From: Escherichia phage FH3
Length of the DNA stretch: 64,000 nt
Sequence record: OR886155.1
Strand: one strand, 5' to 3'
Part shown: positions 1-61,100 of the stretch, one piece after another
Numbering within the stretch: the first letter of the stretch is position 1
Layout of the letters: every line of letters begins with the position of its first letter
The notes under the pieces: model-generated
Told to the model about the DNA's origin: nothing
The model's input: only the letters and a program-made list of their open reading frames with translations
The model's database searches: none
Translations under genes and position numbers: made by a program

Positions 1-56
1 TCCATGTCATCATCGTCATCTACTTCACCGCCACCAAAACAACTCATACAGGCTCC

Positions 57-278
57 TTAGTAAACTAAACCTATAGCCTTTGCATCGGGCTGAGGGACTA
101 CCTTTGCGCTAGGGCGATAGCCATCCACTGAACCATTCCAAAGGTTGACACAGGTAATATACCCATCGTCTATGATGTCTGTTTTAATCCAGAAGTGTTT
201 ATCATGACCAAAAACACTTCCGTTTGGCAGCGTGGACAGTTCAGCGGTTTTAAGTGACTGCTTAGAGTCTAGTTTCAT
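57..278 (-). CDS. small early protein, member 1 of a five-copy paralog family
   Basis: ORF track; shares ...G(S/D)VF...FW(I/L)...D...RPS..V(V/M)P(Q/R)PD with ORF 3307-3525 and the G-x-VF core with ORFs 3526-4293. Confidence 0.4.
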   Translation of the reverse strand: MKLDSKQSLKTAELSTLPNGSVFGHDKHFWIKTDIIDDGYITCVNLWNGSVDGYRPSAKVVPQPDAKAIGLVY

Positions 279-535
279 AATAACCTCAATTATCGTAGCA
301 TGTATTCCAATACATGTAGTTAACGTACGTTCTCGGTTTGATTCCGTACATGATGAAGTGAGTCTTCTTGATCCTTTCCTTCAGCGTGTAATAAAGGCCA
401 TCACTGAAGTTACCAATCTTTACTTGGAAGCGTAAGGAGCGAGCATCCATTCGAAGCATGGAGATTAGCTGTACCCTACTACCTCCAGCCATCTCTTCAA
501 GAAGCTTCTTTGTATTCCAATAATGAGCTGTCATA

Positions 536-817
536 TTACCACTCCTTACCGGTTGTTGTTACAGAACCACCACACCACTGTGCATCTGACAAGGTTTTAG
601 TTTCCTCATCTACTGCTGCACCGTTCAGGCATGAGATACCACTGTAACGCATATCAATTTCACCAGAAGGAACCTTCTCACCTTTGTGCCAGCGAGAAAC
701 ACAAACACCTTCCACTGCTACTGCACACCATCCATCAGGACGGCTCTGTACGCAGCCTGTAAGGGCTATGCAGACAAGGAAGATACATATTAAGGATATT
801 ACACCACCCCATGACAT
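536..817 (-). CDS. small lipoprotein (possible superinfection-exclusion type)
   Basis: Internal Met of ORF 536-874 begins MSWGGVISLICIFLVCIALTGC: hydrophobic signal peptide ending in lipobox L-T-G-C; GGAGGTG 7 nt upstream of this ATG; listed start at 874 is probably too far upstream. Confidence 0.45.
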   Translation of the reverse strand: MSWGGVISLICIFLVCIALTGCVQSRPDGWCAVAVEGVCVSRWHKGEKVPSGEIDMRYSGISCLNGAAVDEETKTLSDAQWCGGSVTTTGKEW

Positions 818-837
818 AACACACCTCCAAGAGCCTC

Positions 838-926
838 TAGCGAGGATGACAGGGTTCGAACCTGCATACTCCAATTACTTCTTTAACGACCGCTTAGAAG
901 GCGGGGAAGATACATCCTCGCTAGAA
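838..926 (-). other. tRNA-like structured element (not a canonical tRNA)
   Basis: Minus strand: 9-bp helix GCGAGGATG/CATCCTCGC closing a GCAGG-TTCGAAC-CCTGT T-arm-like hairpin and a CCGC-CTTCTAA-GCGG hairpin; no D-arm could be placed. Confidence 0.25.
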
Positions 927-930
927 GCTC

Positions 931-1371
931 TTATTTATTATTGAAACCCTTGCTCCAGTAATACTTACCGTTGCAAGACCTACTACAAAAATGGTTTTGG
1001 TTTTCTTTGTGGACCTTGTTACCCCTTCTCTCAAAAGATGTGCCACAATTACTACAAATCAAAGTAATGACCACACCCTTAGGTCTGTTCTCTAAGGTCT
1101 TCTTTAAGTGATCATTTGTGCTTAGAATCTGAAGGTTAGATATCTCATCATTGGTTGGATTTTGATCAACATGATCTACCTCTTCCTCCGCAGTAAGATA
1201 CCTCCCTACATGGCAAGACATTAAATACCTTGCATAAGAGATCGTAGTCCTATCTGTGTTAGAGTTGAATAGGTCAACACGCCTCCTCCCATCCTTACTT
1301 GTCCTTAAATACCCCAACCTCCAGTCATTGATGAAGGGGTATTCCAACTCTATTTTCAATACCACCTCCAT
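931..1371 (-). CDS. HNH-family endonuclease (putative homing endonuclease)
   Basis: HVDQNPTNDEISNLQILSTNDH motif plus C-terminal CSNCG...CSRSC zinc-finger-like cluster. Confidence 0.55.
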   Translation of the reverse strand: MEVVLKIELEYPFINDWRLGYLRTSKDGRRRVDLFNSNTDRTTISYARYLMSCHVGRYLTAEEEVDHVDQNPTNDEISNLQILSTNDHLKKTLENRPKGVVITLICSNCGTSFERRGNKVHKENQNHFCSRSCNGKYYWSKGFNNK

Positions 1372-1394
1372 TGAGCTAAGGGTGCTAGATTTGT

Positions 1395-1604
1395 TTAACT
1401 AAAGATACGAATGGCTACATCGTGACCAATATGACCGGGAACTTTATGCTGTTCTATTTTCAAACAGTGTTTACAGATACGAGATACACGAGATTCTTTT
1501 CTCTCGACCGGAGTGTCTTTAGCGTGGGTGATATGTAGGTTCTCAGTGATCACCCACTCGTGTTTACATCCAGAATCTTCGGGCTTTTTCTTACGAAAGA
1601 ACAT
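1395..1604 (-). CDS. small Cys/His-rich protein, Zn-ribbon paralog C
   Basis: Internal start MFFRKKK...; CKHEW...CKHC pattern related to the two upstream ORFs. Confidence 0.35.
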   Translation of the reverse strand: MFFRKKKPEDSGCKHEWVITENLHITHAKDTPVERKESRVSRICKHCLKIEQHKVPGHIGHDVAIRIFS

Positions 1605-1612
1605 AACACCCC

Positions 1613-1777
1613 TTAGATCAGATCTGTTTTCTTGTGCAGACCACACACTTTACAGCGAGAGTAGATACGCAACCCTTGTCGCTCTCTGTCAGTAAGTTTA
1701 TTTGTGATCGTCAGTTCATAAGTATGAAGATCTTCCCACTCATGGAAATGAAAGAAGCGTTTGAACCATTTGATCAT
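1613..1777 (-). CDS. small Cys/His-rich protein, Zn-ribbon paralog B (54 aa, below ORF-track cutoff)
   Basis: My translation: MIKWFKRFFHFHEWEDLHTYELTITNKLTDRERQGLRIYSRCKVCGLHKKTDLI; near-identical architecture to paralog A. Confidence 0.35.
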   Translation of the reverse strand: MIKWFKRFFHFHEWEDLHTYELTITNKLTDRERQGLRIYSRCKVCGLHKKTDLI

Positions 1778-1786
1778 AATGATTCC

Positions 1787-1948
1787 TTAGATTACATCAC
1801 GATGACTAACATCACCACACACCTTACACTGAATAACGTAACGTGTGCCCTTGTCGTTATTCCCATCTGAATCTGTATAGACCAGAGGGTGAGTATTAAT
1901 AATCTTCCAATCATGACAATGAAAGACACGCTTTAGCCACTTGAACAT
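1787..1948 (-). CDS. small Cys/His-rich protein, Zn-ribbon paralog A
   Basis: C-terminal part of ORF 1787-2122 from internal Met: MFKWLKRVFHCHDW...CKVCG. Confidence 0.35.
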   Translation of the reverse strand: MFKWLKRVFHCHDWKIINTHPLVYTDSDGNNDKGTRYVIQCKVCGDVSHRDVI

Positions 1949-1955
1949 ATTAACC

Positions 1956-2207
1956 TCAAGCACAAGCAGGGAGAGTGATGATTTTATACTGACCATCAAA
2001 CTCACTAAACAAACCCAAGAATGTAGGACTGTACGTACCAGTGCAAACAAACTCATCAAACAATGCGTTATAGCTAGGCTTAATCTTCCAAGCCCATACA
2101 TAACCCATCTTGTCAATTGCAATGTAACGAGTGTTCAGAGGAACAGTCATCATCACACCGTCAACTTCGATCACTTTAGTGATTGGTGCAGCTTGAAAGT
2201 TTTTCAT
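1956..2207 (-). CDS. hypothetical protein
   Basis: ORF track, 83 aa, same strand as flanking genes. Confidence 0.3.
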   Translation of the reverse strand: MKNFQAAPITKVIEVDGVMMTVPLNTRYIAIDKMGYVWAWKIKPSYNALFDEFVCTGTYSPTFLGLFSEFDGQYKIITLPACA

Positions 2208-2389
2208 ACTTTACCTTTGATAAAAATATCATTACCACAGACACAGCATGAACGAACAACAGTAGCGCCACGCTGAACGATACGAACCTCTTCCTTAACC
2301 AGATTAATACGAGCACCGCAGCAAGGGGAGTTGACATAAGAGTAACCAGCTTGCGTATGTTTTATTGTTTGCTTAGACATTTTATTCAA
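2204..2389 (-). CDS. small Cys-rich protein (CC...CC)
   Basis: ORF track; SPCCG...SCCVCG pattern. Confidence 0.3.
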   Translation of the reverse strand: MNKMSKQTIKHTQAGYSYVNSPCCGARINLVKEEVRIVQRGATVVRSCCVCGNDIFIKGKV

Positions 2390-2726
2390 GATCTCTCAGT
2401 TGTTCAGCCATTTGTTCGCATTCGTTGATGCAGAAAGCTTCTGTTCTTGGAACCCCGTTAGGGTTGAACCGTGTCTTATCACCTGCATGGGCACAATCAA
2501 ATCCGATTGTATTTAAACCACTCATCTCTTCAAGGGTGTCTTGCCATGTGACACCACCATGAACACTTACATAACAAACCTCTTCCTTTCCGTTATATCC
2601 GGTGAAGTTTTTATGTTTTAAGCTGTCTGGTAGCTCTACATATCCACAAAAATGGGAGTCGTTCATGTGCATAATCACAGCACGAAGACCTGATTTAGTG
2701 ACCCAATCTTTAACCATGCGTCTCAT
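2382..2726 (-). CDS. hypothetical protein
   Basis: ORF track; start moved to internal Met because the listed start overlaps a terminator hairpin. Confidence 0.35.
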   Translation of the reverse strand: MRRMVKDWVTKSGLRAVIMHMNDSHFCGYVELPDSLKHKNFTGYNGKEEVCYVSVHGGVTWQDTLEEMSGLNTIGFDCAHAGDKTRFNPNGVPRTEAFCINECEQMAEQLRDLE

Positions 2727-2770
2727 ATAAGCACCTCTTGTTAGTTTAAGTAAGAGTTGTCCCTTAATTA

Positions 2771-2798
2771 AAACAACAAAGGCCACCCGAAGGCAGCC
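2771..2798 (-). terminator. rho-independent terminator (minus strand)
   Basis: Minus-strand hairpin GGCTGCC-TTCG-GGTGGCC followed by U-rich tract; near-copy at 50101-50128. Confidence 0.4.
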
Positions 2799-3306
2799 TT
2801 TTATTTGTTAACTGTTATACGTCCAACCACCTTGCTTGTTACGAATGGCTGACATTGCATGAATCCAAAAGCCTTCCAGTTTCAGAGCACCGTTAGCTAC
2901 TGCATCCATACGTTCAGGGCGGTTCATACGTTTGGTTGATACTTTCATACCTATCTCTCTTTGTTAGTGGAGGCATTATTGCCAGTTGATATAAGGAATA
3001 GCCCTAGTCAGTAGACTAATCCTGACCGCGTACTCATTGCCGACCTTCTCTGCCTAAGAGTTCAGGTTCTAGAGCTATCTCTTATTCCAACTGGTGAAGA
3101 CTCCCTACCCCTAGGAAGTCTCCTGAATCCCAAACTAATACGTACCCCTACATATCAGAAAGTCTTTCGAAAATTAACAGGTTTTAGTCTAGCACCGGAT
3201 GTTCGAGCAAGCTCTCCCTAGCGGTGTGGCATATGCCTGAATTAATAAGTTAATGAGGAACACCCTCACATAGCCCTCTGATAAACACAAGGGCTATAAG
3301 TCGGTG

Positions 3307-3525
3307 TTACTTTTGAGTCAAATACAAATCAGGGCGAGGCATAACAGTGGTTGATGGATTGAAATTACCAACATAACCAGTGCTTAGATTGGCAGCCCTG
3401 CGTAGTCCATTAGAGAGATCATCATCTAGCATCAGCCAGAATTTTTGATCATAAGAGAAAACATCTCCCCCTTTAAGATCTTCCACATTTGCATATTTAG
3501 GAGTCTCAACTACTTTAATTTCCAT
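3307..3525 (-). CDS. small early protein, paralog family member 2
   Basis: VEDLKGGDVF...FWLMLDDD...PRPD; clear similarity to ORF 57-278. Confidence 0.45.
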   Translation of the reverse strand: MEIKVVETPKYANVEDLKGGDVFSYDQKFWLMLDDDLSNGLRRAANLSTGYVGNFNPSTTVMPRPDLYLTQK

Positions 3526-3783
3526 CTACTTACCCTTGTTGGTAATAATAACATCATGAAGAAGAACAATCTTGCTTTTCGAGCTAAGCTTAAGGACTTG
3601 CTTATTTGTCAGACTGAGGACGACACAACCACCATCAGAAGGCTTGGTCTCTTCAATCTGTGGGGTAAATAGCTGAACAACCATGTAGAAATCTGCTCGT
3701 GTTTCCCTGATTTGGAATACATCTCCAAGTTTGAGATCACCAACACACAAAGACGGTTCATTTACTTCAAGATTAATCTTCAT
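3526..3783 (-). CDS. small early protein, paralog family member 3
   Basis: VGDLKLGDVF core; abuts neighbours. Confidence 0.4.
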   Translation of the reverse strand: MKINLEVNEPSLCVGDLKLGDVFQIRETRADFYMVVQLFTPQIEETKPSDGGCVVLSLTNKQVLKLSSKSKIVLLHDVIITNKGK

Positions 3784-4009
3784 CTTTAGCCTCTATATTG
3801 GTTATGTGGAGATCGCTGCGTACTTGGCAAACTTCATCTCGTTTAAAAGGCATGAGCTTTCCAGTTACCACATCAACACAGTTGACATAGTTATCTGCGT
3901 ATAATGTGTCAGTTCTAATGTAAAGGGATTCTTTACGCTCAAACAGAACCCCCGGCTTCATGTTATTTAAGCGAAGCATTGTACGATCGGATTTAATATT
4001 AACTTTCAT
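3773..4009 (-). CDS. small early protein, paralog family member 4
   Basis: LNNMKPGVLF core; overlaps neighbour by a few nt. Confidence 0.4.
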   Translation of the reverse strand: MKVNIKSDRTMLRLNNMKPGVLFERKESLYIRTDTLYADNYVNCVDVVTGKLMPFKRDEVCQVRSDLHITNIEAKDED

Positions 4010-4011
4010 CT

Positions 4012-4293
4012 TTAATCCACCTTATTGGTAAGTCGAGCATTATCAACTACCTGAACAACAGTATCTTTTCTCAACATTGTTATTCTATCCGAAGTGAGAT
4101 CTACTACTACCCTTTCATCAGACTTCCAACTAGCTGAATAAACGGTTGAGGAATCTAGCTTTACTGTAAGATATAATTTATTTTTAGGTGGCACAGTTTC
4201 AAAAACACTTCCCACCTTCAGATCTTTCAGCTGCTTGACTACAGGGGCTGTATTAATATCATGCTTCATTGTTAATCTCCTGCTGCTTAGCAA
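4012..4293 (-). CDS. small early protein, paralog family member 5
   Basis: LKDLKVGSVF core. Confidence 0.4.
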   Translation of the reverse strand: MLSSRRLTMKHDINTAPVVKQLKDLKVGSVFETVPPKNKLYLTVKLDSSTVYSASWKSDERVVVDLTSDRITMLRKDTVVQVVDNARLTNKVD

Positions 4294-4555
4294 TAGCTAC
4301 TCGCAAGTCTTCATTAGCACGAGCAAGGCGTAATACTTCATTGTTGAGGCTCTGAAGACGCTTGTTTCTATCTTCAACTTGCATAATAAGATCATTAAGT
4401 ATTACTTTAACTTTCTCATTATACATCTCATCCACTCGGACTAGAGATTTATACATTCTTTCCCAGCTTGCTGCTTTGTTTCTGAGAACAATAAATCCTA
4501 TAACGCTGATAATTAAACAGCTTACAAAAAGGAATTTATATACTTCTAAAGTCAT
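4259..4555 (-). CDS. membrane-anchored coiled-coil protein
   Basis: N-terminal hydrophobic segment (FLFVSCLIISVIGFIVL) then heptad-like charged region. Confidence 0.35.
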   Translation of the reverse strand: MTLEVYKFLFVSCLIISVIGFIVLRNKAASWERMYKSLVRVDEMYNEKVKVILNDLIMQVEDRNKRLQSLNNEVLRLARANEDLRVAIAKQQEINNEA

Positions 4556-4755
4556 ATTATTTTACCCTTTATCAGAGATTAAAAGTAATATTATTTAAGT
4601 AAGTTATATTTAGTAAACTTATTTTCTAAGAAATTTTCAAAGGGTCTATATACAGAGCATTACTCATAGTCCCAGAATACTACCATCTTTTTCAATAAAT
4701 TTACTAAGTGGTTGGTTTATAAAGGAATTTAGTTTGTCAAATCTGGCACTAGTGA

Positions 4756-5145
4756 TTATTCCCTAGAGCTATTATCGAACACTAAATCACCACAATACAT
4801 AGGATTGGCATACCATTTTGGCACCCCTTCGCTCTTACTCTGAAAGTAAGTCCCACTATACAGCGGAACATAATTCTTCTTAAGGGCACGTTTAGCTAAC
4901 CGCTCGCTCTCTCCAATGGCTTGCTTAGTCATCGGATTTTTATCACGAAGCAGCTTTACATAACGTTTATAAGGTTTCTCCTGTTTTAATAGTACCGGAA
5001 TCCACTCAAACTGGTTCTTTTGTCTTATCACCTGTTCAGCGGTCAGTTTTCGTTGGGCCATTCTATTTATCACGGTATCCGCAACTAAAGCCTTACATGC
5101 GGTTGGCTGATTCCCTGCCTCATAATAAATAGTCAATGTCAACAT
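4756..5145 (-). CDS. hypothetical protein
   Basis: ORF track, 129 aa. Confidence 0.35.
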   Translation of the reverse strand: MLTLTIYYEAGNQPTACKALVADTVINRMAQRKLTAEQVIRQKNQFEWIPVLLKQEKPYKRYVKLLRDKNPMTKQAIGESERLAKRALKKNYVPLYSGTYFQSKSEGVPKWYANPMYCGDLVFDNSSRE

Positions 5146-5192
5146 TAGCTGGGCCGTTGTTATCAGAACTTGCTACCTCCTGTTTTACGGGC

Positions 5193-5220
5193 ATAAAAAA
5201 GCCCCAGCCGTAGCCGGGGC
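5193..5220 (-). terminator. candidate rho-independent terminator (minus strand)
   Basis: GCCCC...GGGGC hairpin (5201-5220) followed on minus strand by UUUUUU (plus-strand AAAAAA at 5195-5200). Confidence 0.35.
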
Positions 5221-5531
5221 AAACCTGAAAGCAACACATGACCGTTGCTATAAATACACTCGCAAATGCACTTACAGCAACGCAAAAAGCCGCTCAAAGG
5301 CGGCTATGCGGAAGCTTCAAATGGGGAGAGGGCACGACGCTACAGAAAGAGCGTCATAGTACTAAAAAGAGAGGCTATTGGAGAGGTTACTTATTGCCTT
5401 CCTTAATGCCTTGTTTTCTTGTTTAACCAATTCGTTTTCTTCTTGCAAGGATGCTACCAGATGGACCAGAACATCAACTACTGCATCACCTTGCCGCATC
5501 TCTCTGACTTTATTTAGAATCTCTGAATAAA

Positions 5532-5975
5532 TCATTTTACCCTCGCCTCTTTGATGGGGTCAATGTATTTCTCAACGCCCCATTTATGTTTACTATCTGC
5601 GTAGAAAACATCAGGCGCACACTGACTTGTCTTAGGGAATGCTTGCGGGTCTTTCGTGCTACCTTTAAACTTCTGCTTACCACGGGTGCGACCATTACAG
5701 AAGATTTCTAACTTCTTCTCTTCTTCTGTTTTAGCGCCCCCGCTCTGTAACAAAGAACGTTTATGATCGGCTAACAATAACGCATCAGCACGATGAACAC
5801 GATGGCCTACACGCTTTGCCACACTAGAAGGAATATGGGATTCAGCCTCAGCCTTTGCAGCACGACGTTTTAAACTACGCTTACTAACGTGATTAGTTGC
5901 CTTCGGTTTCTCTTTCTCCAGTTCAGAGATAGCAAAACAACGCCCGCCCTTCATGCTGATTTTAGATTTAGCCAC
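5532..5975 (-). CDS. basic hypothetical protein
   Basis: ORF track; K/R-rich, possibly nucleic-acid binding. Confidence 0.35.
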   Translation of the reverse strand: MAKSKISMKGGRCFAISELEKEKPKATNHVSKRSLKRRAAKAEAESHIPSSVAKRVGHRVHRADALLLADHKRSLLQSGGAKTEEEKKLEIFCNGRTRGKQKFKGSTKDPQAFPKTSQCAPDVFYADSKHKWGVEKYIDPIKEARVK

Positions 5976-6250
5976 AATCTTATTCCTTTTAGTGATAAAT
6001 TATATCGGGCAAGCCCATCAAGGTGACAGGCTTGAACAAATAACTTAATCGAGTAAACTAAATGACTTCCAACTGCGTAGCAGGATTGTACCATCATCCA
6101 TAGCCACGCATAACTTTAACAGCTTCTTGTTAGCACTACTCACCGTTGTAATTCGTCCGGTTGTACATTTACCTTTATTGCTATAAAGATAAACCACACG
6201 ACGGCCTAACAAACGAGATGGCGCTTCCTTAAATTCTGAAATGTTAGTGA

Positions 6251-6475
6251 TCATGATGCTTGATACCTTTGAATGTGTTCAATACGGGTTGATTGAGCAA
6301 ATGACGCTTTAACAGCCATTTTCCTAACTTCTTCTTTACGCTGGTTAGTGTGTACAGTATCCCAATGTTTGTTATCACGTTGGCGCTGTAATATCTTACT
6401 ACATTTGCGATGGTTTCCCGTGCTGCGATGTTTCTCACAAATAGGACACTTGCCAAAATTACTACTGAATATCAT
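6251..6475 (-). CDS. small basic Cys-containing protein
   Basis: ORF track; CPICEKH...HRKC cluster; the overlapping alternative frame 6244-6456 is judged less likely. Confidence 0.3.
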   Translation of the reverse strand: MIFSSNFGKCPICEKHRSTGNHRKCSKILQRQRDNKHWDTVHTNQRKEEVRKMAVKASFAQSTRIEHIQRYQAS

Positions 6476-6699
6476 TTTCTCAATCCCAGCTTTCTTAAGA
6501 TACGGCCTAACGTTGTTTCTTGCGTGATAATATAACTGATCGCTTCACGTTCCAGCGTTTCAATCTTCATTGGCGACGGATACCATTCACCGGTAATAAC
6601 ACATTTACATTCAACGCCATATTTTTTAGATAGGCGGTAATGTTGACCGTTGACAAGATTCCGATAAATCGTGGTATGCGTAATTAACATGATCATCAC
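6472..6699 (-). CDS. hypothetical small protein
   Basis: ORF track; abuts neighbours. Confidence 0.3.
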   Translation of the reverse strand: MMIMLITHTTIYRNLVNGQHYRLSKKYGVECKCVITGEWYPSPMKIETLEREAISYIITQETTLGRILRKLGLRK

Positions 6700-6801
6700 C
6701 TTTGATTAGATTCTTTGATTAATGCACTGAATCAATGCACTGATAAAAGAAAAGGCGCTACCCGTTAAGATAGCGCCTTATGTTTATTCGAATTGTCCTA
6801 C

Positions 6802-7710
6802 TTATGCCGCTTGGCGTGCTGCCATAATCTCAGCTGCCTTGCGCAATACTTCTTCCTCTTCTGCTTTCGCCGCTTGTTCGGTACGGGTAGCAACCGTTGA
6901 AGAGATACGACCTCGCAGACTTTCTAACTTCTCCTGCATAGCTGCAACAGTCTTTTCCATTTCATCAGCGTATGAATCGAGTGATTCTAATTCCTTGCTT
7001 GATGCGTTCATCAGATAATCATCTGAGATCGCTACCGTCGAGGCCGTTACTTTCTTGATGAGTGAATCAAAGGACTTTTTAACTTTGCCGACTTCTTCAC
7101 TCAAAGCAATGGTGTTATCACTGGTAGCGCCGTTGCGCTCATCAGCCAGTAATTTGGCTTCAATACGGATTGCATTCAAGCGTTCAACTAAAGCGTAAAT
7201 ATCCTGATTAAAATCTTCCTTGTTTTTCGCCGGAATTTGCAGGTGTGCCGCCACGTTGTCGTTGCAACCTTTGTAGAAGTTAGGATTATCCACTTCAATT
7301 GCACGACCTAAAGCAAAGTTTTCGAAAGCATTTGACCAGCGAGCACGATTTTGTTCCATTTTGGCCTTAATTTGCGCTTCTTTCGCGTCTTCTTTAGCTT
7401 TCGCCTCACCTTCCAGATTAATCCACTTTTTACGACCATTTGCCGCATCGGTGTTAAACTTGATAGGAGTTAAGAAAGTAATTGCAGTGGCAATCACATC
7501 CATATCACGAAAACGTTCGGTTAACAGAAAATCAACCGCCGACTGCAATACATCTAACTTCTTGCCGTTACTGCGGAAGTGCTGCAAGTGCCCTAACAGA
7601 AAATTAGAAACATCTTGTTTGATCGCCGCGTTATTGCTACGAATGTTGTTAGCCAGTGCGTTAAAACCAGATTCGTTAACCAGATTAAAGATCTTAGCCA
7701 TGATATTCAC
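6802..7710 (-). CDS. hypothetical early protein (coiled-coil C-terminus)
   Basis: 302-aa ORF, first gene downstream (minus sense) of the 1.8 kb non-coding region. Confidence 0.4.
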   Translation of the reverse strand: MNIMAKIFNLVNESGFNALANNIRSNNAAIKQDVSNFLLGHLQHFRSNGKKLDVLQSAVDFLLTERFRDMDVIATAITFLTPIKFNTDAANGRKKWINLEGEAKAKEDAKEAQIKAKMEQNRARWSNAFENFALGRAIEVDNPNFYKGCNDNVAAHLQIPAKNKEDFNQDIYALVERLNAIRIEAKLLADERNGATSDNTIALSEEVGKVKKSFDSLIKKVTASTVAISDDYLMNASSKELESLDSYADEMEKTVAAMQEKLESLRGRISSTVATRTEQAAKAEEEEVLRKAAEIMAARQAA

Positions 7711-9484
7711 CTTTCAATTGTAAGGGCGCTATTGCCCCGCTCTCTATGAGCTTGTTTAAGTCACTATTAACTTATCTCTAACCACTCACTTTTTAAGTAG
7801 TTACAGGTAAGTGAGGCGGTCTTATCAGGAGTTAACCTTGCCGCCTCCTTATCCGTGATGTTTCATCTGGTATCTTTAATTAGTCGCTATAAACGAAGCC
7901 GACCTGATAGCGATGATCAATCATCACAATAAGGCTATGCGTCCGACTCTATTTAATTACATTGCTGTAACCGTCGGCAATATCGTTTACTTTGTTTTCG
8001 CTCCCGCTTATCCTTTGTGCCAACTCCTGATCGCTAACCATCGCCCACTACGGGAGGCTATTGCGAAAAGGTCATTGACCGCCTAATATTCCGGCGTTTT
8101 ATATCTTTCAGCAGGTTTACTACATAAACCGACTATGTACTTTCGTCATAAGACGAATATCAAGCCGTTCACATCGTAAACGTTCGCATTAAACCTTATT
8201 GTTAAATAGCAATTTGCCACTTTTTAACCACTCCCCGCCGCCCTCAATTGGGCGTTAATTCTTCGGACTTGCCTACCCTGATTAACTTCTTTCACTGTAG
8301 CACCTTGTTAGCGATGACCGCCGCTACCCTTAACCGTGGGCGATTAGCTTAAGCCGTTGCGTGTACTCAATGAATCCGTTTATCAGTGGTGACTTTTCCA
8401 GTAAGGGAATGTAAGACTGTTTACCCTGATATTTTAGGGAGTCTTACACCGTTTTATCTGGTATGCTTTCCGATGGTTATTATCATCAAGCATATTCAAC
8501 CGATATATGGGAATGTTTAAATTATTAAAGAGCGGTAAATCTATCAGTGTGCTTTCTCACACTATGCAACTGTTAGCCGTTGTTACGCTTTTCACTGAAG
8601 CGATGATTTGCTTAGTGAGTGCTCATTATGAATCATGTTGTTTTCGCTGTCAACCGCTTTTTAATCTTTTTTCGTCGTTCCCGCTATTGGGAGGATATAT
8701 CAATCAGCTTTATTTGATTGAAGATTAAGCGGTGATGCTTAACTTATGATTCATATTGTTAAAGAGCGTTAGCCTTTTAGAGTGTCTGCTAATCACTGTC
8801 ACATTTAAGGCTTACTTATTCATTAACGGGCCGCCTACACCCGAACTACTCGCTGCACTATGTGCCACTTTTCCCGCGATACGTTGATTTGGGAACTTGT
8901 TAGCGGTGTATCTGCTAACTTGTGGTTAGTATGGACTACTTTAACCACGTTTGCAACTCTTTTTATCATCTTCTTTTAATTCCTTTCCCTTATCTCGCGT
9001 GAATCTATGCGAAAGGGCAAGATGATAAGTTTTTAAAGAGCGGGATTTTTTAAGTCATCGCTGACTATGCTCACTATATATCAGGCTGTTTTCGGTGTCA
9101 ATACTCTTTTTGAGAATATTTTCACTTTCTAACCTGATTTTTAAAGAGCGGGGCAATTTCTTGCCTTGTATGTTTTACATCGTACCCGATGAAATGAAGT
9201 ATACGCTAATCAGATGAGGTTGCAATAGGGTAAAGCAAATTATTTTAAACTTTTTCACTATAGGAAGGTAAAAGAGCAGGCGCACGCGATACATCATAGA
9301 AAACGGCTTGTAAAGCGATATTTAGCGGCCTAAAACGCATCACAACGAGCTAAAAGGGAGTAAGGCATACACTCACCTCATAAAAGAGAAAAGCCTCACT
9401 AGGAGGCTTACAGGAAGGATTAGAGAATCAGATAGATTATGACCATAGGCATGACTACGGCACAATACAGAAGAAAGATTAAGC
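7711..9484. repeat. 1.8 kb ORF-free region with reiterated motifs
   Basis: TTAAAGAGCG at 8525, 8759, 9033 and 9141; two hairpin + CCGT..TGTTT(C/T)ATCTGGTAT modules near 7820-7885 and 8400-8478; CACTATAGG at 9256-9264. Confidence 0.45.
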
Positions 9485-9850
9485 CTATGGATTTACACAT
9501 TGACCGTTACCGGATGCCATTTCATTCATAGACTCATCAAAGAGCGTCAACGATGAGCGCATCAAGTGATCGACCGTAATTTGCTTACCAGTGGTTTCAT
9601 TTACCAGTTGAATAGTTTTATCATATGATTGTACATGATCGAAATCATTTACATGTAAAATAATAACTTTAGGTGACTTTTTACCAGTGTCATAGTTTTC
9701 TACAATATAGGTGCACTGTAAACCGTCAACCGTAGCAGGGGAGAACGTTGCAGCCTTAACGCTACCCATAGCTGACAGCAGGACACCTAACAGGAGAACG
9801 ACAAGGAAGAAGCCTACAATCGTTTTAACGACGAATTTAATAAACCACAT
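9485..9850 (-). CDS. membrane-anchored or secreted protein
   Basis: N-terminal hydrophobic stretch FVVKTIVGFFLVVLLLGVLLSAMG. Confidence 0.4.
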   Translation of the reverse strand: MWFIKFVVKTIVGFFLVVLLLGVLLSAMGSVKAATFSPATVDGLQCTYIVENYDTGKKSPKVIILHVNDFDHVQSYDKTIQLVNETTGKQITVDHLMRSSLTLFDESMNEMASGNGQCVNP

Positions 9851-10038
9851 AGCAATTAACCTTTAATATTGAGATTAAGCAAATCGAGAGCGGCAACAAT
9901 CAGTAAATAGTTTAAAGAAATGAAGCCCACGACAAACAAAAACAAAAACAGCACAACAGACCTTAAAGAACGTAAGAATAAAGCATGTCAGCGACGAATA
10001 ACGCCACTGTAACAACGAACAAGCAACGCCAAAAATAA

Positions 10039-10311
10039 TCATTCTTCTTCATTGCTACCCTCGCCAAAAAATGCTACGCTGATTTGTTCCACTTCTTCCA
10101 GCGACAGAAGAATCCCACGTTGGGCTAGATACTTCCCAACAGTTAGATAATCTTGCACCAAGCAGACAATAGGAAAGCGTATGTTTTGTATCTCACCTTT
10201 AGAAAGAAAAGACAAATAACCAACGTCGGTTGACTCATCAAAGGACAATGTAACGCCACCGTAATTATGCGTGTCAATTAATGCAATAGTTTCATTTCCC
10301 ATCAGTATCAC
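10039..10311 (-). CDS. small protein, paralog trio member C
   Basis: THNYGG motif shared with ORF 10318-10476. Confidence 0.35.
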   Translation of the reverse strand: MILMGNETIALIDTHNYGGVTLSFDESTDVGYLSFLSKGEIQNIRFPIVCLVQDYLTVGKYLAQRGILLSLEEVEQISVAFFGEGSNEEE

Positions 10312-10317
10312 CCTTAA

Positions 10318-10476
10318 TTAGCCCATGATTGAGCAGGTTAGCCAGCGACAAGCCACCGTCTTAATATTATCGCCGACAATAAACAAGATTAGACACTTGT
10401 CAGAGTCATCAGTATATGAGAAATCAATCCCACCATAATTGTGAGTCGGAATAGTAAAGCTATGCTCTTTAGTCAT
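10318..10476 (-). pseudogene. small ORF, paralog trio member B, possibly frameshifted
   Basis: My translation MTKEHSFTIPTHNYGGIDFSY... (52 aa); the conserved C-terminal GGLSLANLL motif is encoded out of frame. Confidence 0.3.
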
Positions 10477-10720
10477 GTATCAATCTTTCACTTAACAGGT
10501 TAGCCAGTGACAAATCACCTTTGATATAGATGTCACGAAAATCAGCACGGGTAATTTCAAGGCCAGCAAATTTCAACCATTTTTTAGCTGACTGAAAATC
10601 CATTTTGCAAAAAGTGATAATAGGCACGATAAGCTGACCATCAAGCGTATTAAACATGATAGCAGTATCGCCAACAAAACAAGAAAAGTCGTTAGATAAT
10701 TCAACTTCTTTAATAGCCAT
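10469..10720 (-). CDS. small protein, paralog trio member A
   Basis: C-terminus GDLSLANLLSERLIHD; about 30 nt of its 3' end recurs at 10326-10355. Confidence 0.35.
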   Translation of the reverse strand: MAIKEVELSNDFSCFVGDTAIMFNTLDGQLIVPIITFCKMDFQSAKKWLKFAGLEITRADFRDIYIKGDLSLANLLSERLIHD

Positions 10721-10756
10721 TATTTATACTCCCAAAAGATTGGCAAATTAATTTAT

Positions 10757-11248
10757 TCACTTACTAGCCTTAATGCAGTTGGCTAAATTAACGTGAACAG
10801 TATAAACAGCGTTGTCAGCGTTATTGTAAACAGTTGTGGCGATCATCGACTCATTAACCGGACCATAACTCACAAGATTAGTAACGGCTTTAACGTCTTC
10901 ATAACGTTGTACAGTGCCAAATGTCACCATATCCATATCGTTATCGGTACGCTTAAGCACCAAATCACTGTTAGGCTGATTATCTAGCGTTTTAGATTGA
11001 AAGAGAACGCCATCATTAGTAACGTTGCTAAATTTCATCTTTAACACGATGGAAGTGCCATCACTATCAGCACCGTTACAAATCATCCAACCCTTATTGA
11101 TGGAACTAGAGAAGACACTAGCCGCATCAGTTGCAGGAGTAGGACTAGCGATAGCCTTATCAGAAAGAGATGTGACCAGTGCACTAACACCAATCGCTGC
11201 AACTAGTGCATAACTTGCCAGATTAACTACCTGCATTGCTTTAGCCAT
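10757..11248 (-). CDS. secreted protein with signal peptide
   Basis: N-terminus MQVVNLASYALVAAIGVSALVTSLS... typical cleavable signal peptide. Confidence 0.4.
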   Translation of the reverse strand: MAKAMQVVNLASYALVAAIGVSALVTSLSDKAIASPTPATDAASVFSSSINKGWMICNGADSDGTSIVLKMKFSNVTNDGVLFQSKTLDNQPNSDLVLKRTDNDMDMVTFGTVQRYEDVKAVTNLVSYGPVNESMIATTVYNNADNAVYTVHVNLANCIKASK

Positions 11249-12015
11249 TTCGTTACTCCTTAGATAGATTCAGTCAACTGTCATCAACTATATATTAAAG
11301 GAAAAGACTGTCAACCATCTATTTTCTAACTTTCTTGCATCCTACTGAAAACTAAAGGAATTTAATTTACTAAACTTTCCATACTCAGAGAATCAGCTTA
11401 CTTCTTATTGTTACTTTATAACACTACGGGTAACAGACCAACAGACCAGGACAAACGGGGATACAACAACCGCAGGACAGACCACGGGGAAACACAGCCA
11501 GATAGTGCGGTAGTAATATACCACTTAAATAATTGTATAACTCAAACATCAAAGACGTTCGCTACGCTCACAAAGGCACGCTGAAAAAGAAAGTAATAAA
11601 AGAAACAATTAAAAGAAATACAATCATCCACTTAATTAATACATACATCATTATTGCACTCATAATCATTACTATTGAAACTATTTACACTCAAACTATG
11701 GGGGATGGAACGGTAACAATACGGTATTATTAGACCTGTTATGATTGTGCCTGTACAGTGCTAGCCTTTCTCTCACTCTTTAAAGGGGTACTAAATAAAC
11801 GGGTAGGTAATGTATTGGGTAGTATACACGGGGGAATAATTACGGGGAGTAGGCACGGGGAAAGGTGGAACATGTAAAGGGAAGGTAAAGGCATTGCCAA
11901 TAACCCTTTTTTAAATGAGGACTCCCCCTTTTTAGGAAACGCGCGGGAAGCGGCTAGCCCCACTCGGTCAAATCAGAATTTTAAACTCTTATATATAAGC
12001 TTAAGAGAGGACTTA
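11249..12015. promoter_or_regulatory. divergent intergenic control region
   Basis: Lies between the minus-strand early block and plus-strand genes; ACGGGG-type motifs clustered at 11426-11490 and 11798-11862; AT-rich tract 11580-11740. Confidence 0.35.
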
Positions 12016-12177
12016 ATGAATCTAATTAAAGTATTTAGACGGATGAAGTGTAAGCACAATTACTATCTTCTTCGTAAAGCTTACGGGGATGAAAGAATAC
12101 ATGGTTTGTATCTATCAACATGGAAGTGTAAGGAATGTGGTAAGTTGAGATTCAGTACGTGGGTGGATAAGCCTTAA
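12016..12177 (+). CDS. small Zn-ribbon-like protein (53 aa, below ORF-track cutoff)
   Basis: My translation MNLIKVFRRMKCKHNYY...WKCKECGKLRF. Confidence 0.3.
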   Translation: MNLIKVFRRMKCKHNYYLLRKAYGDERIHGLYLSTWKCKECGKLRFSTWVDKP

Positions 12178-12391
12178 CGTGACATGGCCTTTATGGGGGT
12201 GCCTTAACATGAAGTCCCCTTTATGTCTTAACTTTATCAGAGGGATTTATGACTGAAGATGAATATGGTAGCTTCTCTGAAGAAGACTACGAAAATGAAT
12301 ACAGGTATGCTCGCGGGTGTCAATGTGAGGGTGCCTTTACGGGTAGGTCTTATGATGTGCCCTTTATACTCTTATTCAGAGGAGAAGAATT

Positions 12392-60629: not shown

Positions 60630-61100
60630 CTAGGAGTTTTGCCTCTTCAAGAGTTTTACTCCATACACAGACTCACGTTTACCATCTTTTTGAACAGATA
60701 CACAGAACGTCCCGCCCTTCTCTTGGTAGACATTCTTAACTCCTAGCTTGTTATCAACCCTTGTCTTAGCATTCTGACTGTTCTCAGAGTGAGAGCACTT
60801 TCTCAGGTTAGTTTCTTCTAGGTTTTCTCTGTTACCATCGGCATGATCTATTTGATATTCATCCGATAAATCCTCACCAGTATAAAGAACAAAAAGAATC
60901 CTATGATTATGGACACGAACTCCTCCTAAGGGAATTTGATAATACCCATCTTTTGTGAGCTTGCCATCAGGTTTACCTACTATATCATTAGCAAACTTAC
61001 TAGGCTTCCTTTTCCAAGAAAGCCCTGAAGGGGATGACATGTCTATATTAAAGAGATCAACTACTTCATCATAGCATATCAGCATGATTTGTTCCACCAA
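60630..61100 (-). CDS. HNH homing endonuclease
   Basis: YQIDHADGNRENLEETNLRKCSHSEN motif. Confidence 0.7.
   Translation of the reverse strand: MVEQIMLICYDEVVDLFNIDMSSPSGLSWKRKPSKFANDIVGKPDGKLTKDGYYQIPLGGVRVHNHRILFVLYTGEDLSDEYQIDHADGNRENLEETNLRKCSHSENSQNAKTRVDNKLGVKNVYQEKGGTFCVSVQKDGKRESVYGVKLLKRQNS

Follow-up and report, generated by a model that had tools for sequence, protein, structure and literature searches.

Escherichia phage FH3 carries five small early-region genes that are diverged paralogues with a predicted SH3-like barrel fold

Results

A family of five genes in an early gene region

Sequence comparisons confirmed that five short genes of Escherichia phage FH3 are diverged paralogues of a single family, homologous over their full length, and we tentatively interpret them as old, diverged duplicates of a stand-alone SH3-like beta-barrel of ~70-85 residues that may act as an early host-interaction binding module. 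The window, by which we mean the whole 64,000-nucleotide stretch of OR886155.1 that was analysed, derives from a Kuravirus (phiEco32-like podovirus) with 99% identity to Escherichia phage 1-6af. All five open reading frames picked out by a sequence-only reading of this DNA exist, and all lie on the minus strand; they are listed here with one further gene:

57-278, minus strand: copy A, 73 aa, orthologue of phi32_104 (phiEco32) and Paul_108 (Paul)
3307-3525, minus strand: copy B, 72 aa, phi32_113, final gene of the array
3526-3783, minus strand: copy C, 85 aa, phi32_114
3773-4009, minus strand: copy D, 78 aa, phi32_115
4012-4269, minus strand: copy E, 85 aa from ATG 4269
4259-4555, minus strand: 98-aa context gene heading the coupled block, not a member of the barrel family

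Four of the genes form the proposed head-to-tail array, transcribed in the order E, D, C, B, while copy A is solitary and lies ~3 kb downstream. Starts and stops within the array overlap or abut (the ATG of copy B abuts the stop codon of copy C, and the start of copy C overlaps the end of copy D by 11 nt) and ribosome-binding sites are present, making E-D-C-B a tightly translationally coupled unit. The open reading frame originally drawn at 4012-4293 is a real gene with a different favoured start: ATG 4269, which has AGGAG 7 nt upstream and gives the 85 aa annotated in 1-6af and Paul, is most likely, and TTG 4293 (93 aa) is unlikely. The start of copy E is overlapped by 11 nt by the 98-aa gene, whose product has a hydrophobic N-terminus (membrane) and a heptad-like (coiled-coil) C-terminal half. 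This gene carries the label 'DNA helicase' in the phiEco32 RefSeq record (phi32_116) and in relatives, and its product had no NCBIfam or PADLOC match. Rfam gave no family for a conserved non-coding stretch beside copy B.

Homology of the five copies

Pairwise local alignments of the five proteins, each compared with 1000 shuffles, gave z scores of 18.0 for A-B, 10.8 for A-D, 9.8 for C-E, 8.4 for D-E, 6.2 for B-D, and 4.5 for C-D. Six of the 10 pairs beat at least 997 of the 1000 shuffles, four of them beating all 1000, and although A-C and A-E were non-significant alone, copy D joins all five as the central member bridging the A/B and C/E subgroups. Orthologue-built profiles compared with hhalign aligned end to end over 70-71 columns, with probabilities of 96.6% for A/B against D (E=5e-10), 91% for C/E against A/B (E=1e-6), and 88% for C/E against D (E=3e-6). 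Copy A also matched the family HMM at E=1e-22. The N-terminal core motif proposed earlier is real in the form (D/N)(L/M)K.G.(V/L)F, and the proposed closeness of copy A to copy B was borne out by their top z score and their common FW(I/L) and PS..V.P.PD motifs. Paralogues are 21-31% identical and orthologues 50-99%, which indicates that the duplications behind the five copies are old.

All five proteins are full-length members of PHROGs database families, A and B of phrog_6570, C and E of phrog_9955, and D of phrog_16423, with E values from 5e-13 to 4e-49 over nearly the whole profile (for example, 6e-32 for copy A against phrog_6570 and 2e-36 for copy C against phrog_9955). Each protein also matches the PHROGs of other copies, and there are cross-matches to the sister families 7832, 8365, 7431, and 12612. 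The database splits these families, all labelled 'unknown function', whereas our analysis joins them as one superfamily.

Copy number among kuraviruses

The family HMM found exactly five copies inside the window, two HMMs finding no others there at E<0.1. In genomes of this type it also found three or four further copies immediately to the left of the window's first position. Kuraviruses carry 8-10 copies each, including a second array just beyond the window. The repertoire differs among related phages, as the comparison of copy number proposed by the sequence-only reading brought out. A tblastn search found copy A in 71 phage records, at two places in some of them, and KBNP1711 carries it in tandem. 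Copy B occurs in 66 records, with the FH3 allele at 99% identity or more in only three, and is missing from phage Paul. Copy C exists as two allelic classes in kuraviruses, 21 records at 80% identity or more and 47 below 60%. Copy E is an accessory copy, found in only 21 phage records compared with 66-71 for A-D and missing from phiEco32. A-D are present in most kuraviruses, a distribution closer to that of near-core genes than to the one usual for accessory genes of counter-defence, which counts against the binding-module reading given below. A search of IMG/VR with copy D matched only four contigs, all kuravirus.

Predicted fold and surface properties

The model of copy D is an all-beta SH3-like barrel (pLDDT 83) and answers to the expected fold, a barrel of 5-6 antiparallel strands similar to solved domains of the SH3-like, KOW, or Tudor type. 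The nearest solved folds are EF-P/eIF5A domain I and the C-terminal domain of ribosomal protein L2, to neither of which the family is homologous in sequence, with Foldseek E values to translation-protein SH3-like domains of 0.02 or worse. A sequence search of solved structures returned nothing below E=0.1. An independent AlphaFold2 model of copy C, built with C/E orthologues only, reached a pLDDT of 46 and was unusable; that copies C and E probably share the barrel is drawn from their sequence homology. In both of these copies the beta3-beta4 hairpin is extended by an insertion of 8-9 residues.

Superfamily-wide conservation is restricted to residues of the hydrophobic core and to a glycine in each of two turns, G20 and G50, of which G20 is invariant and G50, like F23, near-invariant; such a pattern of core and turn residues is consistent with a binding module that is not an enzyme. 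The copies vary at surface positions, in the beta3-beta4 hairpin, and in their C-terminal tails, entropy peaking at residues 35-43, and the acidic C-terminal tail of copy D is invariant. The N-terminal MK(I/V) strand is strongly conserved, and pLDDT over residues 1-10 of the monomer model is 57. The proteins are near-neutral (pI 4.8-9.3, net charge -2.5 to +2.6) and so are neither DNA mimics nor strongly basic nucleic-acid binders.

Selection

All copies are kept by purifying selection. Gene-wide dN/dS, calculated pairwise by NG86 from only 5-6 genomes, was 0.09-0.23 across copies (0.13 for copy A and 0.20 for copy C), and synonymous divergence was deep. In the hairpin, dN was 2-3 times higher in A, B, and D and ~1.6 times higher in C, and dN/dS was 0.12-0.45. 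The earlier description of the family as diversified is thus not matched by diversifying selection: no positive selection was detected gene-wide or in the hairpin in these pairwise comparisons, an observation that counts against a binder, which might show it if engaged in an arms race.

Probable early expression and the question of host takeover

Strong sigma-70-like promoters lie upstream on the minus strand at 11314, 9101, and 8653, with terminator-like hairpins at 6779, 5305, and 5220 between these early promoters and the array, a point against the reading as early binding modules. For the gene block reported as early in phiEco32 and SU10, one published account places CDS 69-125 in the early class (PMC4281155), and two other reports concur (PMC9965538, PMC8948821). 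The orthologues phi32_104 and phi32_113-115 fall within this block, in agreement with the early placement suggested before, and judging by position and by the temporal class of relatives the five FH3 genes probably belong to the early, sigma-70-dependent class. SU10 lysate proteomics listed no early product of ~8-10 kDa.

The suggested tie to host takeover or anti-defence found no backing in the databases: Pfam, NCBIfam, PHROGs, and PADLOC returned no annotated family for the five proteins, and Pfam, including KOW and EFP_N, had no match at E<=10. A search of the kuravirus anti-defence literature likewise found nothing on the barrel family. These searches found no similarity of the proteins to a characterised takeover or anti-defence protein, which also counts against reading them as binders.

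A wider superfamily

The superfamily comprises 919 clusters at 50% identity, is without a Pfam model, and includes phage N4 gp21. Among the 148 best newly found matches, 14 are naturally occurring fusions of two domains, with lengths of 140-184 aa. A Tenacibaculum MAG encodes five module repeats behind an SprT-like protease domain, and phage proteins of 1900-2200 aa contain up to 13 weak module repeats, one of which has a weak EFP_N match (E=0.003). This reuse of the module in fusions, SprT-linked repeats, and giant multi-repeat proteins resembles that of a binding domain. A further word-indexed search of proteins with this broad profile gave little beyond kuravirus proteins that were already in the set, and two distant metagenomic members had no tblastn match among isolated phages.

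N4 gp21 (74 aa, uncharacterised) is homologous in sequence (HMM E=2e-15, profile residues 1-65) and matches in structure in BFVD (TM 0.78). It is the only copy found in the 22 kb at the start of the N4 genome and stands outside any array, and N4 belongs to a different virus family (Schitoviridae); our literature search found no mention of it. Proteins of the T4 early family GoF/MotB.1/Frd.2 are LSm-like in fold, and a mutant of GoF has been implicated in mRNA stability (PMC12152347). Membership of that family was rejected, with HMM scores of ~0 and E>0.2 for GoF and MotB.1 in an eight-sequence database. GoF and MotB.1 are also longer (119-141 aa) with extra C-terminal domains, and the T4 genes, including Frd.2, are scattered rather than coupled as in the kuravirus array. 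Homology to EF-P/KOW was likewise rejected, as the superfamily profile reached 0.7% probability against E. coli EF-P with hhalign.

Discussion

We suggest that the five proteins would be binding modules rather than enzymes, and that host sigma-70 promoters would drive their production early in infection. The copies would share one scaffold but each would offer its own surface to its own partner from host or phage, which would most likely be a protein, and jointly they would make up a group of accessory factors for host interaction that differs in composition between kuraviruses. A takeover or anti-defence function may be supposed for the family, and since the hairpin and the C-terminal tails are variable, it is reasonable to expect that the copies may differ in specificity. 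An extension that we consider improbable in its full form is that the whole superfamily is a general-purpose binder scaffold with specificity in the beta3-beta4 hairpin and tail, and that kuraviruses deploy 8-10 of these early against distinct host factors, possibly including those behind the unexplained restriction-modification resistance of Gordonclarkvirinae (PMC11990801).

Several other explanations were weighed against the binding modules. The most credible of them, though still unlikely, is that the proteins are RNA- or ribosome-directed modules of KOW, LSm, or SH3-like type that alter mRNA stability or translation during takeover. This would fit the nearest solved folds, the weak EFP_N match in a giant homologue, and the nearest published analogue, the T4 GoF/MotB.1/Frd.2 family (PMC12152347), but neither EF-P nor T4 GoF/MotB.1 is homologous in sequence, charge is near-neutral, and the partly conserved surface residues D21, T33, and D34 are acidic or polar rather than basic or aromatic. 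Moreover, the most variable part of the kuravirus family is the very hairpin that in EF-P bears the modified lysine and is functionally fixed. Somewhat less probable still is that the co-translated copies are subunits of one assembly, associating via edge strands as homo- or hetero-oligomers and acting together. Small beta-barrels commonly oligomerise, E, D, C, and B are coupled in translation, two-domain fusions occur naturally, and the monomer model places the MK(I/V) strand poorly despite its conservation; against this, copies are lost and gained independently between phages, and only one copy lies in the initial 22 kb of the N4 genome.

We regard it as very unlikely that the proteins are RNAP-interacting Tudor-like modules, comparable to the domains with which CarD, Mfd, and UvrD contact RNAP, and that they act together with gp79 and gp36 to tune the host enzyme, the structural likeness being generic. 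That the resemblance is due to chance or that the open reading frames are non-functional is refuted to the point of being negligible: the non-significant A-C and A-E scores and the low-confidence own-subfamily model of copy C would allow it, but it is contradicted by full-length profile-profile and reciprocal PHROG matches, the shuffled controls, low dN/dS over deep synonymous divergence, the ribosome-binding sites, and annotation of the genes in all relatives. Early host-interaction binding modules thus remain our preferred, if tentative, explanation.

Kuraviruses are common therapeutic-candidate coliphages, and their early region is almost entirely 'hypothetical'. Here, 8-10 early genes per genome reduce to one barrel module, which also occurs in N4 gp21 and in hundreds of phage proteins from metagenomes, so that many ORFans collapse into one problem. 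The family is widespread in phages, and the find, while real, is fairly ordinary and would not surprise a phage specialist. If the copies do not bind different host factors, they are another uncharacterised phage domain; if they do, they may offer a natural scaffold for mapping host vulnerabilities. The family supplies a defined and compact group of proteins, each of 8-10 kDa, that could be screened for partners and phenotypes, and the five genes are a reasonable target for screens of host takeover and anti-defence.

Gene layout and coding status

Over its first 6 kb the window is 99% identical to Escherichia phage 1-6af, in which position 60659 corresponds to window position 1; identity to many further phages of the genus Kuravirus, the phiEco32-like C3 podoviruses of the Gordonclarkvirinae, is 92–95%. 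Every gene in 1–12,000 lies on the minus strand; this is the early/middle arm, which in these phages is transcribed leftward, and in it we examined five small ORFs, copies A to E:

57–278, minus: copy A, 73 aa; phiEco32 orthologue phi32_104
3307–3525, minus: copy B, 72 aa; phiEco32 orthologue phi32_113
3526–3783, minus: copy C, 85 aa; phiEco32 orthologue phi32_114
3773–4009, minus: copy D, 78 aa; phiEco32 orthologue phi32_115
4012–4269, minus: copy E, 85 aa, ATG at 4269; no phiEco32 orthologue

The sequence-only reading had the coordinates of A to D right but most likely began copy E too early (4012–4293): 4012–4269 is the better model because AGGAG lies 7 nt ahead of the ATG, 1-6af and Paul are annotated with the 85-aa form, and this form aligns with orthologues from residue 1. 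Transcription passes from a 98-aa gene (4259–4555), which shares 11 nt with the start of E, through E, D, C and B, with a 2-nt gap between E and D, an 11-nt overlap between D and C, the stop of C abutting the ATG of B, and a Shine-Dalgarno-like purine run at every start of the block. The 98-aa protein (minus) is hydrophobic at its N-terminus and heptad-like in its C-terminal half; its label of "DNA helicase" in phiEco32 RefSeq (phi32_116) and many related records looks like a propagated mis-annotation, since we found no match to it in NCBIfam or PADLOC.

All five ORFs are genuine protein-coding genes, and purifying selection acts on them. They are annotated in all relatives looked at, and in five or six kuravirus genomes, whose synonymous divergence reaches saturation, pairwise dN/dS (NG86) was 0.13 for A, 0.23 for B, 0.20 for C, 0.09 for D, and 0.10 for E in one pair only.

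Homology and repertoire in kuraviruses

The proposal of a five-member paralog family held up, and its quoted motifs are present in the copies. Pairwise Smith-Waterman alignment, with one sequence of the pair shuffled 1000 times as the control, gave z values of 18.0 (A-B), 10.8 (A-D), 9.8 (C-E), 8.4 (D-E), 6.2 (B-D), and 4.5 (C-D); A-C and A-E were not significant alone, so the five are joined via D. Profiles built from separate orthologue alignments aligned end to end for A/B and D (96.6% probability, E=5e-10), C/E and A/B (91%, E=1e-6), and C/E and D (88%, E=3e-6), and each protein was a full-length member of PHROG 6570, 9955 or 16423 with cross-hits to the others. Paralogues are 21–31% identical and orthologues of each copy about 50% to 99%, so the duplications predate sampled kuravirus diversity.

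The family is larger than that reading described. A five-copy HMM and a broader one found exactly five copies in the window. In related genomes they also picked up another head-to-tail array, made of three or four weaker members, 1.2–2.3 kb left of window position 1 (E from 1e-6 to 1e-10 with a few thousand ORFs searched; family HMM 1e-6 to 4e-10):

1-6af (L002), 8679–9423: 16af_00090-092
phiEco32 (L003), 11220–12199: phi32_95-98
Paul (L001), 700–1683: Paul_099-102

Some phages carry an additional phi32_109-like copy, and there are thus about 8–10 copies per kuravirus. The repertoire varies: Paul is without B, phiEco32 is without E, and KBNP1711 has a tandem duplicate of A. In a tblastn search (E<=1e-8) over 50,697 phage records, the number of records with a match was 71 for A (at 81 places), 66 for B, 70 for C, and 68 for D, but just 21 for E. 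Copy C falls into two allelic classes (21 records at >=80% identity, 47 at <60%), and the window's B allele is rare (3 records at >=99%). B and C are 53–71% identical in most other kuraviruses compared and 91–94% in one; the genes flanking them are mostly 92–99% identical.

Fold and conservation

The predicted model of D is an SH3-like beta-barrel; we only infer that common fold for C and E, because a model of C from C/E orthologues alone reached no more than pLDDT 46. In a Foldseek PDB search, the top 40 or so matches were almost all EF-P or eIF5A (E 0.02 or worse). This likeness is one of fold class and not homology, since the superfamily profile matched E. coli EF-P at 0.7% probability, neither the five proteins nor 88 of 90 superfamily members had a Pfam match, and a PDB sequence search was empty.

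Conservation among 90 diverse members falls on core residues and turn glycines (M1, I/V3, L14, L17, G20, V22, F23, L29, Y30, I31, C44, V45, L47, G50, L52, F55, V61, A65, L67, and I69), with G20 invariant, D21, T33, and D34 partially conserved, and no His, Cys, Ser or acid constellation suggestive of catalysis. The beta3-beta4 hairpin (residues 35–43) has the highest entropy, and C and E have an 8–9 residue insertion there; hairpin dN is 2–3x that of the rest of the gene in A, B, and D and about 1.6x in C, with dN/dS <=0.45. The acidic C-terminal tail of D orthologues is invariant, and the family proteins have small net charges and pI values of 4.8–9.3.

Expression and possible function

In the phiEco32 and SU10 literature, the genes between about number 69 and the right end, phi32_95-115 among them, are assigned to an early class that host sigma-70 RNAP transcribes and gp79 shuts off (PMC4281155, PMC9965538, PMC8948821, PMC12276001). 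Near-consensus sigma-70 promoters are predicted on the minus strand upstream of the array at 11314, 9101, and 8653, and a hairpin at 2801–2778 closes the unit. We infer early timing for A to E from these relatives, as the class was set there and terminator-like hairpins (6779, 5305, 5220) sit between the promoters and the array.

The best fit to these data is that the copies are non-enzymatic binding modules, in which one stable barrel scaffold would carry surfaces specific to each copy; they would be made early, be partly dispensable, and be gained or lost individually. We take protein partners to be more probable than nucleic acid because charge is near-neutral and the few conserved surface residues are acidic or polar. 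An RNA- or ribosome-directed function is the reading to which the EF-P/eIF5A fold neighbours and the T4 GoF/MotB.1/Frd.2 analogue (PMC12152347) point, though no sequence link accompanies them, and binding of RNAP by the copies is a further rival. Co-assembly of the co-translated copies is another rival; natural two-domain fusions, the tight coupling of the copies, and an N-terminal strand that is conserved yet modelled with low confidence hint at it. A virion role is unlikely, as no early product of this size is listed in SU10 lysate proteomics. Host takeover or anti-defence, the function first proposed, is plausible but has no direct support, and is weakened somewhat by purifying selection and the near-core distribution of A to D.

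Neighbouring elements

Several other features lie close to the copies:

2949–3306, sense on minus: 358-nt stretch directly downstream of B, no annotated gene
1395–1604, 1613–1777, 1787–1948, minus: second, unrelated tandem family of 69, 54, and 53 aa (z1–z3)
931–1371: HNH homing-endonuclease-like ORF, immediately upstream of the next feature
841–919, minus: borderline Rfam tRNA (29.7 bits, cut-off 29)

The 358-nt stretch is 93–98% identical across kuraviruses, next to a B protein that is 68–71% identical in most, and its predicted RNA fold (-115 kcal/mol, z=-2.9 vs shuffles) includes several perfect 10–12 bp hairpins; it matched no Rfam family and is a candidate conserved non-coding RNA or DNA element. 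The tandem proteins scored z=20.5 (z2-z3), 4.5 (z1-z2), and 2.1 (z1-z3) against shuffles, and their common motif, H-x-W ... C-K-x-C(G), may form a zinc ribbon. Paul and phiEco32 annotate tRNA-Arg at the borderline tRNA; ARAGORN found no tRNA in the whole window.

The wider superfamily

Searched exhaustively with the profile, 1.84 billion cluster representatives yielded 919 clusters (E<=1e-3), nearly all single-domain proteins of 60–85 aa, along with two-domain proteins of 140–184 aa. Phage N4 gp21 belongs to the superfamily at the sequence level (E=2e-15), and two tandem copies occur on an unrelated metagenomic contig. Among the structural neighbours in BFVD are several proteins each from EP335 and from other phages, none of them characterised; none of the PHROGs matched by the family has a function. 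The family is new and without a Pfam model; its type, multi-copy sets of small early proteins with a beta-barrel, is familiar. The result is useful for annotation and offers a sensible target for experiments, though it is no surprise.

Giant phage proteins of 1920–2196 aa on metagenomic phage contigs (L004 10001–16591; L016 8001–13763) have up to 13 weak repeats and appear to be built from the beta-barrel module, and a Tenacibaculum MAG protein (P0089) has a SprT-like protease domain followed by five clear repeats. The giant repeat proteins and the SprT-like protease may offer clues to what the module binds.
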